DNA from: an uncultured delta proteobacterium
GTDB lineage: Bacteria; Desulfobacterota; Desulfomonilia; Desulfomonilales; Desulfomonilaceae
Direction of reading: 5' to 3'
Length of the DNA stretch: 64,000 nucleotides
Assembly: GCA_963789265.1 (NCBI GenBank)
Contig: CAWBKB010000006.1
Span: 384,001 to 448,000 of the forward strand
In this document: positions 7,712 to 32,940 of the stretch, piece after piece
Layout of the letters: the number at the start of each line of letters is the position of its first letter
Numbering within the stretch: position 1 is the stretch's first letter
Notes under the pieces: model-generated
Told to the model about the DNA's origin: nothing
Databases searched by the model: none
Seen by the model: the letters and a program-made list of their open reading frames with translations, nothing else
Position numbers and translations under genes: made by a program

Positions 7712-8167
7712 TTGGCTACATCGTTCGTGAGTTGCGTCATGCATTACGTATTCAGCACCAAAGGGCGCAACCCTCTCTTAGTCGACCAGATGAGGACAAG
7801 CCTCTGGGCCTATATGGGGGCCATTTCACGCAATTATCGGATGAAAGCCTTGGCTGTTTGGTGGAACTGCAGACCACGTCCACATTTTGATGTCGTTACC
7901 TTCGTCGATTTCCATTGCTGATGGTATTCGACTGATCAAGGGCAATTCATCTAAGTGGGTTAATGAAACGTTCCCCTCTCCGACAGGTTTTGCTTGGCAG
8001 ACCGGATATGGAGCATTTAGTGTGAGCCGCTTGTTCATTCCGGAAACCATCGGCTATATCAATAATCAACCATCCCATCACAGAATCACAACCTTTCAAG
8101 AGGAGTACGTGTACACTTTTTGGAGAAACATGGATTGGAATACGACGTACGATATTTGTGGGGATAA
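7712..8167 (+). mobile_element. tnpA: IS200/IS605-type Y1 HUH transposase (RAYT-like), two frameshifts
   Basis: HYVFSTKGR, DHVH (HUH), KGNSSKW, FAWQTGYGAFSVS, YINNQ; frame breaks near 7858 and 8110; REP hairpins downstream. Confidence 0.85.
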
Positions 8168-8193
8168 GGTTCGTCCAGAAACCTGGCGATAAA

Positions 8194-9868
8194 GAAACTG
8201 TCTCAAAAGTCGATTTTGGGCTCACGATTCTCAACCGATTTTACTAATGAGATGTGAAAAGAGAATCGGAGAGGGAAAGGATTATGCCGCAAATCAGAGC
8301 CGACTACAAGCAGGTGTTTCTGCTTCCGCCCGCTATAGATGACTGGATAGGGCCTGATCATCCAGCGCGCTTCATAGGAGACTTTGTGGATTCCTTGGAT
8401 TTGGAGGTGCTGGGTTTTCGAGTTCCGAATGGCGAAACGGGCCGTCCTCCCTATATTACCGATCTTTTGTTGAAGGCATGGCTCTACGGCTATTTCAGCA
8501 GAATCAGGTCATCGCGCAAGCTTGAGAAGGCATGCATGGAGAACATGGGATTGATTTGGCTGACGGGTATGAATGCAGCGGATCATAATACCCTGTGGCG
8601 ATTCTGGAGGGACAACAAGAAGGTTTTCAAGGGAATATTCAAACAATCGGTTCAAGTGGCAGTCAAAGCCGAGTTGATAGGTATGGCGGTTCATGCATTG
8701 GATGGAACCAAGATCCCTGTCGGATCATCTCGGGAGAAGTTCGAGAACCAAGATCAGTTGGAGCGGATGCTTGAGAATTTGGACAAGTGCGTTGCCGACG
8801 TCATGACGGAGACAGAGAGGTGCGAGCAAGAGGAGGGCGGCGAATGGCGTCTTCCCGAAGCCCTTCAGGACGAGTTGAAACGCAAGGAGCGGATACAGAA
8901 GGCCTTGCAGGAATTGGATAAGACTGACAAGAAGGTCGTCCATCCCTGCGAGCCGGATGCCCGGTACATGAAAACCGGCGGTCTACTGAGCCCTCTTACA
9001 ATGCTCAAGCGGTGGCAGACCAACAAAGCGGCATGATTGTGGCTGAGGAAGTGGTCGACGAAGGCAATGACAATGGGCAGCTTGTTCCCATGCTGGATCG
9101 AGTTCAGGAAAATTTGGGCGCAACCGCAGAGGAAACCGTGGCGGACGCAGGATACTTCGCATCGGCTCAAATCGCGTTGGCCGAAGAGAAGGAGTACGAG
9201 GTCTTGGTCGCCAAGTCGTCGGGAGAGTCCGCTGCGGAAAAAGGCGCTCAATGGGACCCTTATCACGCTTCCCAGTTCGTCTACGACCAAGAGCGAGACG
9301 TCTGTATTTGTCCGCAAGGCGCATCGCTGAACTTTCTTCAGAAGAAAGTCACAGGAAAAAACGGAAACGAGATCCGGCGGTATCGATGCCGGGACTACTT
9401 GACGTGTCCTGAACGGTGGAAGTGCAGCAAGAGCAAGAATGGCCGTCTCATAGACATTAACATCTATCGTGACGCAGTTGAGCGTCACCGCAAGAAACGG
9501 GAGGTCCCGGAAAGCAAGACGCTACTCCGAGCCCGCAAGGTGATCATTGAGCCGGTCTTTGCATGGATAAAGAGCCACTTGGACTTTAGACGGTGGACCG
9601 TGTCCGGATTATCCAATGCGAAGGCTCAATGGTCTTTGATGTGCGCCACCTTGAATCTCAAGAAGCTCTACAGCCATTGGCTGACGGGGCGTCTGGTGCT
9701 AACCGCGGCCTAAGACATCAGGACGGAGAGTGACTCATGGCTGCCTGAGGCATACTCATAGCCGGCCCCGGCTCGTCGGAGACAAGGGAGGCCAAGGTGC
9801 GAGATTAACCGCACCCTACCACCCCGAGAGTCGTCATCGTGCCACTACAACCGTTTTGAGACACTCTC
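8194..9868 (+). mobile_element. IS1182-family insertion sequence
   Basis: TIRs GAAACTGTCTCAAAA / TTTTGAGACACTCTC; encloses transposase; flanked by halves of REP palindromes. Confidence 0.9.
8284..9713 (+). CDS. IS1182-family DDE transposase (frameshift near 8972)
   Basis: GRPPY, SSRKLEKAC, DHNTLWRF, LDGTKI, SYNAQAVAD, ADAGY, IEPVFAWIK; adding one A to ATGAAAACC joins the two ORFs. Confidence 0.9.
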
Positions 9869-10045
9869 TTTATCGCCGGGAGAGCAGGAACAACAGGCCT
9901 TTGTCGTCCCTTTAGGGACGATTGATGCCTTGGATAGGCCAGGAACGGCCCGCCGTCCCTACAGGACTGGAATATGCTTGGTTTTCGACTCCACCTGGCG
10001 ATGAATCGCCAGGCTACTATCAAATGTTCCTCCGGAACACGATTC
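9869..10045. repeat. REP cluster (CCCGGCGATGAATCGCCGGGCTACTATC / GTCCCT..GGGAC family)
   Basis: GTCCCTTTAGGGAC, GTCCCTACAGGAC, CCTGGCGATGAATCGCCAGGCTACTATC; same family at 22190-22600. Confidence 0.8.
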
Positions 10046-10109
10046 GTGCAGATCCTTATTTTTACGTCAAGGCGCATCACAGTCTTTTGGGTATGACGGC
10101 CCCACGATC

Positions 10110-13323: not shown

Positions 13324-13533
13324 CAAACTGTCTCAAAATTCTTGAACTGGACGCAATCGTAACATGAAATTCCCTCACCCTGACCCTCTCCCAAAGGGCG
13401 AGGGGACGCTAATAGAGACCTTGGATCAGCTCCCTCTCCCTCTGGGAGAGGGCTGGGGTGAGGGCACCGAAAATGCTGACCAGGCTTAATCGTGGCACGA
13501 TTCTGGGCATCAAATTAGTTTTGAGACAGTTTG
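13324..13533. mobile_element. MITE type A (IS1182-like ends), cargo CCCTCACCC/GGGAGAGGG REP pair
   Basis: TIR CAAACTGTCTCAAAA...TTTTGAGACAGTTTG, 4-bp duplication GTAC both sides. Confidence 0.9.
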
Positions 13534-17807: not shown

Positions 17808-17892
17808 AGATTGCTTCGCTGCGCTCGCAACGACAGATAGCGTGAATGTCATTGCGAGGAGTGAAATCCCGCGTCCCGCGGGAAAGCAATCC
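17808..17892. repeat. GATTGCTTCG/GTCATTGCGAG REP pair containing micro-palindrome at 17867-17883
   Basis: GATTGCTTCGCTGCGCTCGCAACGAC...GTCATTGCGAGGAGTGAAA[TCCCGCGTCCCGCGGGA]AAGCAATC. Confidence 0.8.
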
Positions 17893-20473: not shown

Positions 20474-22129
20474 TCAATGAACCACTAGCAGAGTAAAGGG
20501 ATATACATAAGCCTGAAGAAATACCAGGCAACCCACAAGCGTAGCCAGGGCAAGGCTGTGGAAGAAAACGTACCGCAGAATGTCCCCCTCGTGGCCGTAC
20601 CACTGGGTTGCAGTACTGGCCACCACGATGCTCTGAGCGTCAATCATCTTGCCCATGACACCGCCCGCACTGTTGGCAGAACACATCAGCGTCGGGCTTA
20701 TACCTATCTGCTGGGCGGAAATCCGCTGCAAACTACCAAAAAGCACGTTGGAAGATGTGTCCGAACCTGTGAGTGCGACTCCAAGCCATCCGAGCAAAGT
20801 CCCGAAGAAAGGATAGAGGTGACCGGTCATGGCAAAAGCTATGCCCATAGTGGCATCCAGCCCGGAATATCGAGTCACGAATCCGAGAGAAAGCATGGCT
20901 GATATTGTCAAGATGGAATACTTAATCATCTTGATCGTTTCCCAGTAGATTCTCACCATGTCGCGGACGGAATAGCCCATAACAAAACCCGATATTATCG
21001 CTGCCAAGAGGATGCCTGTGCCTGTGGCCGACAACCAGTTGAGAACGTAGACTGCCTTCTCGGCCACAGGCTTTGTAACCACGGGAGGCATGCGCATCAC
21101 CATGAGGTGCAGGTCGGGGACCAGGAACTTGGGCATGGAAATCGCGTTGAGAAAATGCTTGAACGGCCCCAGACCCCACAGGAAGACGAGAACACTGAGG
21201 ATAATCCACGGCGTCCAGGCCCGAATCACTTCTCCTCTGGTGTAATCGTGACTTGCTCGCGCTTCAGCGGTCGCATCATGCCCGTTCAGCCCCCAAATCT
21301 GTTTCGGATGCCACTTCATCAAGAATATCGTCACCGCAGCCAGCGATACCAATGAAGATATGATGTCCACCAGCGAAGGGCCATGGAAATTAGAAACCAG
21401 AAATTGAGGAACTGCGAAAAAAACTCCGGCCACCAATGTAGCCGGCCATACGCCGATTATCCCGCGGAATCCCGCGTAAGCCCACACAAGCCAGAACGGG
21501 ACGAGAAGGGAGAAGAAGGGGAGGATGCGCCCTACCATCGCGCTCAAATGCATTTCGTTCAATCCGCTGACCCCTGCCAAAGTAGTGACCGGGATGCCCA
21601 AGGCTCCAAAAGCTACGGGGGCTGTGTTTGCAATCAAGGAGAGCCCGGAAGCTTCAAGCGGCCCGAAACCTAAACCGATCAAAATTGCGGCAGTAACAGC
21701 CACCGGAGTGCCAAATCCGGCGGCCCCTTCGAAGAAGGCTCCAAAGGCAAAAGCGATGAGCACTAACTGCAACCTGCTGTCCTGCGTAACAGCGGTAAGG
21801 CTGGTCTGTAGGATCTCGAACTGGCCTTTCTCCTTCGTGAGCCGATAGAGGAAAATGACGTGCAGGATGATCCAGCATATAGGCATGAGGCCGAAGCACG
21901 CCCCATAGATTGCGGTGGCTGTTGCGAGTTTTCCGGGCATGTGAAACATAGCCGTTGCCACAGCCAAAGCCGTGGCAAGACCCAGGAGAGCGGCATAGTG
22001 GGCCTTGATTCTGAGAATCGCCAGTGTCCCCAACAGGACCACTACCGGCAAAGCGGCACACAGCGTCGAGAGCGCAATATTATTCAGTGGATTGTAAACT
22101 TGTTGCCAAGGCACCTCCAAACCTCCCAT
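20474..22129 (-). CDS. lctP: L-lactate/glycolate permease
   Basis: FFEGAAGFGTPVA, ANTAPVAFGALG, GSDTSSNVLFG, GGVMGKMI. Confidence 0.95.
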   Translation of the reverse strand: MGGLEVPWQQVYNPLNNIALSTLCAALPVVVLLGTLAILRIKAHYAALLGLATALAVATAMFHMPGKLATATAIYGACFGLMPICWIILHVIFLYRLTKEKGQFEILQTSLTAVTQDSRLQLVLIAFAFGAFFEGAAGFGTPVAVTAAILIGLGFGPLEASGLSLIANTAPVAFGALGIPVTTLAGVSGLNEMHLSAMVGRILPFFSLLVPFWLVWAYAGFRGIIGVWPATLVAGVFFAVPQFLVSNFHGPSLVDIISSLVSLAAVTIFLMKWHPKQIWGLNGHDATAEARASHDYTRGEVIRAWTPWIILSVLVFLWGLGPFKHFLNAISMPKFLVPDLHLMVMRMPPVVTKPVAEKAVYVLNWLSATGTGILLAAIISGFVMGYSVRDMVRIYWETIKMIKYSILTISAMLSLGFVTRYSGLDATMGIAFAMTGHLYPFFGTLLGWLGVALTGSDTSSNVLFGSLQRISAQQIGISPTLMCSANSAGGVMGKMIDAQSIVVASTATQWYGHEGDILRYVFFHSLALATLVGCLVFLQAYVYPFTLLVVH

Positions 22130-22232
22130 CTTCAGTCAAAAATCCCCCCCTTTCCCCATGAGCGTTAAAATAGCCAGCCTCTCAGAATTTGAGAGCCCCA
22201 GCGGGGCTCAATGATAGTAGCCCGGCAATTCA

Positions 22233-22440
22233 GAAACTGTCTCAAAACTATGTTGATGCCGAGCATCGTGCCACGATGGCTGCCCGGCACTAAAGTACCG
22301 GTCTACTCTCAATCGCCCCGATGGGGCTCAAATACAAACGTCCCGGAGGGACTAGTGATAGTAGCCCGGTAATTCATTGCCGGGAATAGGGAGCATTCGT
22401 GTTACGATTTCGTTCGGTTCCAGGGTTTTGAGACACTTTC
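22233..22440. mobile_element. MITE type A (reverse orientation), cargo CCCGGCAATTCATTGCCGGG-family REPs
   Basis: TIR GAAACTGTCTCAAAA...TTTTGAGACACTTTC; duplication TTCA in loop of CCCGGCAA-TTCA-TTGCCGGG. Confidence 0.9.
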
Positions 22441-22559
22441 TTCATTGCCGGGGGACCGGTGAGCGATGATCCAGTTCTTCGTTCCCAGGGCGCCGGAGGT
22501 AAAAATGCTTCGGGCGCCCTGGGGACGAACAGGCTCTCTTGGCCGCTTGTTCCCGGCGA

Positions 22560-22576
22560 TCCCGCGTTCCGCGGGA
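22560..22576. repeat. 17-nt micro-palindrome TCCCGCG-TTC-CGCGGGA
   Basis: Replaces the right arm of a CCCGGCGA...CTATC REP. Confidence 0.8.
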
Positions 22577-22654
22577 CTATCGGGATGTCCCTCCGGGACA
22601 GCAACGCCTCAGCAATCAATCAACCTTATTTTAACGGCTATGCCCCTTTCCCCG

Positions 22655-23974
22655 TTAATGTTGAATCCCGCGTTCCAGTGAAAGATTAATAATCTCGCAT
22701 GTATGAGACACACTCCAGCTACGGCCCCACTTTTTCCGGGCGTACTGGAGTTGCATTAAGCAACCGGGGTTGGAAGTAATGACCCTTTCGGCCCCCGTTT
22801 TGTCGATCGCTGCGACCTTGGCCTCAAGGATCTTCATGGCTCGTTCACGGTGGGTAATATTGTAGATTCCGGCCGAACCGCAGCATTGTCCTTCATCAAG
22901 GATGTCTTTCAGCGTGAGGCCGGGTATCAGGCCCAGCACGTCGCGCTGCGGAGTGATGAGCCTTTGCCCGTGGCGTAGGTGACAGGGATCATGAAAACAA
23001 ACTGTCTCGGGGATTGCACCAAGTTTGATGTAGTCCTTCAGCGCAGGAGCCAGGAATTCGGATATGTCCCGAACCTTTGCGGAAAATGCCTCAGCCTTCT
23101 CGGCCATGCGGGCACGCTGGCCAAGGGTTTCGCGGTAGGCTTTCAATTCGGATCCGCACGCGGCGCAGTCCGTGACAATCGCTTCCACTCTTTTTTCTTC
23201 GAACAGGTTTACATTGTGTTCGGCCATTTCGCGGTAAATTTTTCGCTCGCCTTCAGCGATGTTGGGTGTACCGCAACACTGCTGGTTTTTCGGAACAACG
23301 ACCGTGTACCCCGCTCGAGTGAGAATGTTTATTGTGGCTCGACTCACTTCTCCGAAGATGAGGTTCATTGCGCAGCCCAAGAAAAAGCCCACTCGGCCCC
23401 TTTCCTTTCCAACCGCGGGGATTTCTTCGGGCAGAGTATGGCTTAACGGCCGCACAGGAAGAGGCGGCAGCAAGGATTCCATAAATTCCAAATCAGGTGA
23501 GATGAGGCGCAAAATGTGGGATTTCTCAATTAGCCGTTGAAGCCCCGAATACTGGTACACGCGTAGAGGCGTTAAAAGATGCGAGAGCTTTTCCTGATCA
23601 CGAATGGCATGATGGAGGACAAATCGCTTCAATAGAGGCTGCGCGGTATTCTCCTCAATCCGATGCCGCGCCTCAAGGACTAATTCGCCCACTTTGACTC
23701 CCGCGGGGCAAACGGTTTGGCAATTGCGGCAGTCCAGGCAATGGTACATGTGGCCCACAAATTCTTCCGAAGCCGACAATCGTCCGTCAATGACTGCCTT
23801 GATCATAGCCACGCGGCCTCGGGGAGACTGGGTCTCTATACCGTCGGTGCGATAGGTCGGGCAGGTAGGGAGGCAGGTTCCGCACCTCATACACTGGAGG
23901 ACATCGCCGTAATCGTGAATATCCAAAGTAGCCAAAGCCTTGGCAATCTTCTCTGAATCGACGTGCTTGCCCAT
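22655..23974 (-). CDS. glcF: Fe-S oxidoreductase, GlcF-like (2 CCG domains)
   Basis: CMRCGTCLPTCP, CLDCRNCQTVCP, QCCG, HDPCHL, CCGSAG. Confidence 0.9.
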   Translation of the reverse strand: MGKHVDSEKIAKALATLDIHDYGDVLQCMRCGTCLPTCPTYRTDGIETQSPRGRVAMIKAVIDGRLSASEEFVGHMYHCLDCRNCQTVCPAGVKVGELVLEARHRIEENTAQPLLKRFVLHHAIRDQEKLSHLLTPLRVYQYSGLQRLIEKSHILRLISPDLEFMESLLPPLPVRPLSHTLPEEIPAVGKERGRVGFFLGCAMNLIFGEVSRATINILTRAGYTVVVPKNQQCCGTPNIAEGERKIYREMAEHNVNLFEEKRVEAIVTDCAACGSELKAYRETLGQRARMAEKAEAFSAKVRDISEFLAPALKDYIKLGAIPETVCFHDPCHLRHGQRLITPQRDVLGLIPGLTLKDILDEGQCCGSAGIYNITHRERAMKILEAKVAAIDKTGAERVITSNPGCLMQLQYARKKWGRSWSVSHTCEIINLSLERGIQH

Positions 23975-32784: not shown

Positions 32785-32940
32785 GAAACTGTCTCAAAAC
32801 TCTTGAACTGGACGCAATCGTAACACGAAATTCCCTCACCCCAGCCCTCTGGGAGAGGGCCGGGGTGAGGGCACCGAAAATGCCTAGCAGGCCCAATCGT
32901 GGCACGATGGCGGTCATCAAAATAATTTTGAGACAGTTTC
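32785..32940. mobile_element. MITE type A, cargo shortened CCCTCACCC/GGGAGAGGG REP
   Basis: TIR GAAACTGTCTCAAAA...TTTTGAGACAGTTTC; duplication GGGA in loop of GCCGGCA-GGGA-CGCCGGC. Confidence 0.92.

Follow-up and report, generated by a model that had tools for sequence, protein, structure and literature searches.

The spacer between a glcF-like gene and lctP in the uncultured delta proteobacterium studied here (genome G000) holds a nest of mobile elements that was very probably built by three events at this locus on top of an older capture of a REP pair. The outer element is a MITE of the IS421-like (IS4) family, the element inside it is an IS1182-family MITE, and the REPs are cargo of MITE families, not a layer inserted at the glcF-lctP junction. 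The third event replaced part of one REP with a 17-nt micro-palindrome. An earlier note made from the sequence alone had proposed four layers, each inserted here by a different transposase; the comparisons below reduce these to the three events, with the REP pair as older cargo.

Layout of the nest

The window is the whole stretch of DNA analysed (64,000 nt, G000:C6:384001-448000, forward strand), and feature coordinates are window positions. The nest occupies 22147-22652, and every feature claimed earlier was found there. Both flanking genes are on the minus strand. The glcF-like gene ends at 22655; in a profile search its best models were LdhH and GlcF, each below cut-off. The lctP-family permease protein scored above the TIGR00795 (lctP) cut-off. 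The features are listed below.

22112..22114, minus strand: probable start codon of lctP, GTG (ATG at five of six orthologous loci, GTG at the sixth)
22121..22127, minus strand: Shine-Dalgarno (SD) sequence of lctP, outside the insertion (GGAGG core and similar start distance at 6/6 orthologous loci)
22147..22156, no strand: 10-bp target duplication, left copy (exact match to the right copy)
22157..22642, no strand: outer MITE, IS421-like, IS4 family, 486 bp (ends, empty alleles, autonomous 1,293-bp partner in G001)
22157..22172, plus strand: left terminal inverted repeat of the outer MITE (two mismatches to the ends of the G001 autonomous element)
22193..22232, plus strand: left cargo REP, part one (small hairpin, GTAG foot at 22217-22220, left arm, 4-nt loop)
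22233..22440, no strand: inner MITE, 208 bp, IS1182-type ends (4-bp loop duplication at 22229-22232 and 22441-22444)
22283..22329, minus strand: REP unit one of the inner MITE (Rfam RF01687, 21.2 bits, under the gathering threshold of 37)
22340..22384, plus strand: REP unit two of the inner MITE, feet toward unit one (RF01687, 27.2 bits, under the gathering threshold of 37)
22441..22452, plus strand: left cargo REP, part two (duplicated loop and right arm)
22478..22529, no strand: central hairpin of the outer MITE cargo (kept in relatives)
22551..22599, minus strand: right cargo REP, whose loop, foot and one of the arms have been overwritten
22560..22576, no strand: 17-nt micro-palindrome replacing 15 nt of the right cargo REP
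22627..22642, minus strand: right terminal inverted repeat of the outer MITE (one mismatch to the autonomous end)
22643..22652, no strand: 10-bp target duplication, right copy (2 nt beyond the glcF-like stop codon at 22655-22657)
7718..8192 (start approximate), plus strand: gene of a Y1 (HUH) transposase with a frameshift, probably the cognate of the REP family
8194..9868, plus strand: full-length IS1182 copy, frame broken, in a loop of the nest's REP family

Insertion site, empty alleles and the lctP ribosome-binding site

The 10-bp direct repeat that the earlier note had placed around the outer element is an exact 10-mer at both positions, and its reading as the duplication of an IS4-family-type insertion is backed by empty alleles and by an autonomous partner. 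We searched 31 genomes for the glcF-lctP junction; 15 matched the 2-kb region and both genes were adjacent in six relatives. The outer element is absent from all six. The spacer measures 28 bp in G001, 29 bp in G005 and G006, 24 bp in G007, 26 bp in G008 and 162 bp in G016, compared with 520 bp in G000; the five with a short empty spacer (24-29 bp) are genus and family relatives. A contig from run X2 skips the outer element and is a further empty allele (runs X2, X3 and X7 are small shares and represent relatives only). Without the element and one repeat, the G000 spacer would be 24 bp, against 28 bp in the nearest relative, G001. Aligning the junction in related genomes, which had been proposed as a check, returned empty spacers, though none of those in the six relatives is base-identical and the spacers have diverged.

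The long open reading frame of lctP opens at ATG 22129. The orthologues begin five codons later, at a position that aligns with GTG 22114 (the GTG start among them is that of G001), and a GGAGG-type SD sequence precedes each of these starts. In the window the SD sequence lies 7 nt before the GTG, and the 10-bp duplication begins 32 nt upstream of it. The duplicated 10-mer had been taken as the likely lctP ribosome-binding region; this is ruled out, since the orthologues place the SD sequence at 22121-22127, outside the duplication and conserved in the empty alleles. The related claim that the downstream gene keeps its ribosome-binding site was borne out: the site is intact because the insertion missed it, not because it was duplicated. 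With this site untouched, the operon therefore tolerates the insert. The target of the outer element (22139-22156) is similar to the C-tract tail found in a hairpin repeat, and that repeat serves as the target at other loci (L034, L043 and G000 C1:912623). It may be a fifth, degenerate layer; one of three other matches (at most two mismatches) runs on into a hairpin.

The outer MITE and its IS421-like partner

The two 16-nt ends of the outer element agree at 13 of 16 positions. They differ by two and one mismatches from the commonest end in G000 and are 14/16 and 15/16 identical to the ends of the autonomous element in G001. Relatives of this MITE without inserts are 263-268 bp long. G000 contains 161 outer-type ends (at most three mismatches to the common form) and 35 end pairs less than 600 bp apart, 20 of which have a 10-12-bp duplication (at most one mismatch) and 10 of which carry the REP of the nest. 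The end motif was found in 28 of 61 family genomes.

The earlier note had suggested a search for paired outer ends elsewhere in the genome, which are the 35 pairs above, and for an autonomous IS with matching terminal ends. Such an element is present in the sister genome G001 as five 1,293-bp copies with perfect ends, 11-bp duplications (5/5) and one transposase ORF of 344 aa; the copies are identical to the first at 1,291-1,292 of 1,293 bases. The best model for the transposase is IS4 (NF033592, E 2.9e-30) with a score of 105.5, below the cut-off of 115. Its best plasmid matches are annotated as IS4 family, and it shares 32% identity with an element of E. coli that carries the annotation IS421. 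G054 encodes a 348-aa relative, and an IS421-like transposase was found in 12 of 69 other family genomes. At locus L065 (G065:C6:92405-94575) the match to the transposase falls into two parts about 1.1 kb apart, and another insertion is the probable cause.

End pairing up to 3.5 kb did not find the autonomous outer element in G000, where the long end pairs are mostly MITEs with an IS1182 inside. A protein search of the G000 assembly (95.6% complete) found no intact IS421-like transposase, giving one fragment with a stop and one non-significant match. The outer layer is probably inactive in G000, since this fragment is all that the search found of its transposase there. Judging from the matching ends, an IS421-like transposase acting in trans would have moved the outer MITE. 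The outer element resembles E. coli IS421, which we take to be the element also named IS186 and to belong to the IS231 subgroup, in its similar ends starting with CAT and its G+C-rich target; the partner shares the single DDE transposase and the 11-bp duplication. It differs from IS421 in that it is a non-coding derivative with a REP-pair cargo and that no intact transposase for it was found in G000. Outer-family MITEs often land in the micro-palindrome (G000 C4:226654, C7:373959, C1:1155428 and C6:41406), some with an exact 11-bp duplication, so that the palindrome is both invader and target.

REPs as cargo and the Y1 transposase gene

The REP family has a GTAG foot and an imperfect hairpin, is multicopy and forms inverted dimers. 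It has 68 intact matches in G000, and 27 of the 70 family genomes contain it. Outer MITEs elsewhere in G000, and others in G001 and G004, carry this REP pair and the central hairpin aligned in register, and because of this shared cargo we conclude that the REP pair came with the outer element. Of the 75 REP feet in G000, 73 are close to an outer-type end (within 300 bp) or an inner-type end (within 200 bp), against a background of 1.2%, and the remaining two adjoin inner-type MITEs; no free-standing Y1-spread copy was found among the 75. The earlier claim of REPs inside the outer element was right as to their presence, but they are fixed cargo of the outer MITE family and not a separately inserted layer.

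The only close Y1 gene found in G000 is the frameshifted one, 14 kb from the nest. An inverted pair of this REP surrounds the Y1 gene in five of the six closest homologues of the window gene; among the 11 Y1 loci surveyed, two have looser REP matches and the four more distant ones have none. With this query, a Y1 gene (E 1e-10 or better) was found in 30 of 70 genomes. An intact homologue passes NF033573 IS200 (79.8 vs 55) and fails NF047646 RAYT (24.1 vs 80), so the cognate does not score as a canonical class-2 RAYT. Its motif, Y---Q--HH, is that of subclass 1.2, whose genes are described as generally without terminal IS200 structures in PMC6006769. At L052:1275-1880 and at L053-L056, Y1 genes with this motif lie inside an inverted GTAG REP pair matching RF01687, suggesting that REPs do accompany some genes of subclass 1.2. 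The REP unit matches Rfam RF01687 (Acido-Lenti-1), and the window copy at 9994-10039 passes with 41.1 against a gathering threshold of 37. This suggests that the Acido-Lenti-1 'RNA' may be a REP DNA element.

Two further arrangements were seen. In the window, 7718-10060 consists of the frameshifted Y1 gene, then the broken IS1182 in a REP loop, then a cargo like that of the outer MITE with a degenerate right end. Downstream of two RAYT-like genes in G000 (C7:408822-409439 and C3:99509-100036) lie tandem arrays of other GTAG REPs, into which short IS1182 elements and the micro-palindrome commonly insert.

The inner MITE and IS1182

The inner element is 208 bp long, its ends agree at 15 of 16 positions, TTCA stands on each side, and it sits exactly in the 4-nt loop of the left cargo REP. 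The earlier description of a REP loop split by a 208-bp IS1182-ended MITE with TTCA duplicated agrees with these coordinates and ends. The MITE also carries two REPs of the family that it entered (22283-22306 minus, 22361-22384 plus), as had been noticed. Empty alleles exist for this layer too. G000 has 253 inner-type ends and 60 IS1182-ended elements of 195-220 bp, with an exact 4-bp duplication in 45 of them. It also has 18 full-length IS1182 copies of about 1,676 bp, 15 with a full frame, whose 486-aa protein passes NF033551 (363.2 vs 270). Sixteen of the 18 are in the loop of the nest's REP family; seven of these lie between both ends of an outer-type MITE and four inside an inner-type MITE.

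The inner MITE of the window is a member of a 15-copy cluster, all of which carry the REP. Members of this subfamily are inserted in this REP loop in one case out of 15, compared with 16 out of 18 for the autonomous IS1182; the remaining short IS1182-ended elements are mostly in loops of other hairpins. The target preference differs, and therefore the resident IS1182 may not be the mover of the 208-bp MITE. Its role as mover is plausible but unproven, which bears on the mover and not on the family assignment.

The 45 short IS1182-ended elements outside this cluster lack this REP; the one at G000 C1:2222630, for example, carries a pair of C-tract hairpins instead. At 10 of the 18 full-length IS1182 copies the left and right 4-mers differ and both flanks are REP arms, a hint of recombination between copies and genome rearrangement. 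Two other short IS1182-ended elements in the window, each with a 4-bp duplication, are at 32785-32940 (C6:416785-416940, 156 bp) and 13324-13533 (C6:397324-397533, 210 bp).

The micro-palindrome

The earlier note had described a REP interrupted by a 17-nt micro-palindrome. The palindrome is present, but it does not merely interrupt the REP, 15 nt of which are replaced. G000 has 267 matches, mostly 17 or 19 nt long, against about one expected per spacing. We examined 263 of these: 16 turned out to be cores of CGTC/NTS-type repeats, and the other 247, including the window copy, have no CGTC foot. The site could be resolved for 120 of the 263, whose two 9-nt flanks are also present elsewhere with no intact palindrome between them. 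What most commonly stands in its place is 3-8 nt long at 88 sites and at least 10 nt at 30 (many of them diverged palindromes), and the flanks overlap at two; none of the 120 is a clean empty site. No flanking repeat was found at 209 of 247 sites, and the longest is 3 nt. With no target-site duplication at these 209 sites and target bases lost, the palindrome lacks a hallmark of DDE MITEs, and the earlier proposal of a transposase for this layer gains no support. A purine precedes and a pyrimidine follows the palindrome at 188 of 247 sites. ORFs of at least 200 aa contain 20 of the 247 although they cover 72% of the genome.

Eleven micro-palindromes start at the loop edge of the nest's REP family, and some of them ride in multicopy MITEs and are not independent. 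The window copy lacks 15 nt of the REP compared with 7 in most of the other 10 cases; a later 8-nt deletion is possible. The palindrome is found in 31 of 68 other family genomes (1-281 copies, kin not being independent) and in 0 of 52 genomes of the sister family, a spread across genomes that argues against an assembly artefact.

Several candidates for its mover were examined. The NTS/Ssn system is unsupported, since exact-pattern NTS counts do not follow palindrome counts (0 NTS vs 281 palindromes in G037, 0 vs 147 in G068 and 36 vs 0 in G060). The Y1 gene does not track the palindrome and is absent, with this query, from the palindrome-rich G001, G037, G068 and G015. The IS421-like transposase does not match its distribution either. 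A search for a longer element with palindrome tips gave 48 half-sites, judged by eye to be diverged or MITE-interrupted copies, and the 21 ORFs between palindromes appeared by eye to be ordinary genes or spurious frames, so that no palindrome-framed gene was found. G000 has five small GIY-YIG (Ssn-like) genes adjoining CGTC-type repeats, some of them broken (C7:415055, C7:413401, C7:55798, C5:170564 and C1:1097696). Each of these genes lies next to a hairpin repeat family of its own, as does a DUF559 fragment at C3:94621. A further micro-palindrome, within a repeat of the CGTC type, is at window position 17867 (C6:401867).

Alternative explanations

Could the four layers still have been inserted in turn, the outer MITE first and the REPs later, through the action of a Y1 transposase of their own? 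In relatives the REP is paired with a cognate Y1 gene, of which the window contains a copy. That copy is the sole close Y1 gene found in G000 and it is frameshifted, the two feet scored as free both adjoin inner-type MITEs, and the REP pair with its central hairpin recurs in register in three genomes. We regard this sequence of events as very unlikely and already largely refuted by the shared cargo. An assembly chimera is more improbable still. The region consists of multicopy repeats and no run contig spans the whole element, but both duplications are exact and in register, and a 258-nt contig of X1, possibly the source sample, equals 22395-22652 (right half and right duplication) with no differences. 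A similar nest is found at G000 C7:426966-427478, with an outer MITE, a 209-bp inner MITE in the REP loop and a palindrome in the other REP; another nest is common to G002 and G003, and G004 has an outer-type element containing an inner REP-carrying MITE with different ends. The nest is more than chance because each layer belongs to a multicopy family and empty alleles exist for the outer and inner layers. The nested arrangement is an expected product of the system and not a one-off. It is also unlikely that the insert is kept for operon tuning, e.g., by stabilizing the upstream mRNA or lowering lctP expression. The insert folds strongly on the mRNA strand (z = -5.7), and REP effects on mRNA stability are described for other bacteria in PMC3184786; any nest of inverted repeats would fold strongly, though, the insert is missing from 6/6 relatives with the junction, and the one terminator-like and one promoter-like match are at chance level (0.7 and 0.4 expected). 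Most likely the elements are selfish and influence mRNA stability at most as a by-product.

The micro-palindrome may not be separately mobile and may instead have had few origins, e.g., by NTS/SRM-type hairpin recombination or repair of hairpin breaks, followed by amplification with its host repeats. This is a real possibility, though we consider it rather doubtful. Its core resembles the NTS hairpin core as given in PMC11893778, identical host contexts recur many times (some in multicopy MITEs), and no dedicated gene was found. By our own reading of the site comparison, however, there are about 15 different host contexts with different replaced bases; the 15-nt replacement in the window is unlike the other 10 cases in the REP family; and counts range from 0 to 281 per family genome, with palindrome-rich genomes that have no exact NTS. 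A bolder reading, to which we give slightly under an even chance for all its parts together, is a palindrome of 17-19 nt that is independently mobile and moved by an enzyme, overwriting 3-8 bases at hairpin tips of many unrelated repeat families without duplication. It would then be the innermost layer of a community that feeds itself, where DDE MITEs of two unrelated families took the REP over from its decayed Y1 enzyme and, by spreading it, supply an active IS1182 with landing sites.

Proposed history of the nest

Overall, the nest would be an accumulation of non-autonomous elements that bring hairpins with them and also favor hairpins as landing sites. The insertions, their duplications, the empty sites and the partner families are present in the genomes compared; the acting enzymes, the order of events and any effect on the host are what we infer from them. 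In an older step, the ends of two unrelated DDE insertion sequences presumably came to enclose inverted pairs of a GTAG-footed REP that originally flanked a Y1/HUH gene, which would have given an IS421-like MITE with REP feet outward and an IS1182-type MITE with REP feet inward. At the glcF-lctP locus, an IS421-like transposase acting in trans would then have placed the outer MITE with its REP pair 2 nt behind the glcF stop codon, duplicating 10 bp. An IS1182-family transposase, possibly but not necessarily that of the resident IS1182, would have placed the 208-bp MITE in the left REP loop and duplicated the loop. The palindrome replaced part of the right REP without duplication, apparently by cut-and-replace. 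In the likeliest route, a Y1 transposase or an Ssn-type nuclease may have cleaved a single strand, guided by the hairpin, and carried out strand transfer, with repair to follow. The second and third steps must have come after the REP capture, and either of them could have preceded the first, in a donor copy.

Relation to known systems

MITEs of the IS4 and IS1182 families, REP-targeting insertion sequences and operon-internal MITEs are already known. PMC5678879 describes IS1272 (IS1182 family) as targeting hairpins, with loop-only duplication as route c of its model. The IS1182 of G000 is like this family in its NF033551 transposase, its hairpin targets and its loop-only duplication. IS1272 as presented there deletes the target stem-loop, whereas the G000 element duplicates the 4-nt loop, prefers one REP family (16/18) and has MITE derivatives that carry this REP. 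IS1397, IS621 and IS1594 are insertion sequences that target REPs, and Chunjie is an operon-internal MITE (PMC3184786). The G000 IS1182 likewise uses REPs as landing sites and the outer MITE, like Chunjie, is tolerated within an operon. These known elements belong to other IS families, and the passages on them in that paper do not describe MITE carriage of the target REP.

The REPs studied here share with the GTAG REPs, REPtrons and REPINs the GTAG foot and imperfect hairpin, the inverted dimers and the inverted pair around a Y1 gene (PMC3733652 and PMC6006769). They differ from REPtrons as portrayed there in the IS200-type Y1 gene with a subclass 1.2 motif, and in G000 the REP survives almost only as DDE-MITE cargo. 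The REP unit fits the two-hairpin model of Acido-Lenti-1, which PMC2864571 lists as a candidate RNA; here its behavior is that of a DNA repeat to which a cognate Y1 gene belongs. The palindrome core resembles the hairpin of the NTS/SRM repeats that go with Ssn GIY-YIG nucleases. Unlike those repeats, as set out in PMC11893778, the palindrome is without a CGTC foot, takes the place of target bases, lands in hairpins of many unrelated families and shows no co-occurrence with exact NTS. It is a tiny repeat within another repeat, like SDR5 of cyanobacteria, a very small repeat that PMC4390886 describes as precisely inserted in another repeat.

A literature search by title and start of abstract, of incomplete coverage and with subscription papers mostly outside it, found none on REP-carrying MITEs of these families or on this palindrome. 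The novelty is mostly in the overwriting palindrome and in the REP takeover by DDE MITEs. A palindrome that moved by itself would rank with the smallest known mobile units and would use an unusual route of replacement without duplication. The takeover yields testable enzyme-substrate pairs. By carrying the REP, the DDE MITEs lay down target sites for IS1182, and new insertions are therefore directed to non-coding DNA already present rather than to genes. The locus shows how repeats may persist after the loss of their own enzyme: a REP with a broken Y1 gene is carried on as the cargo of DDE MITEs.
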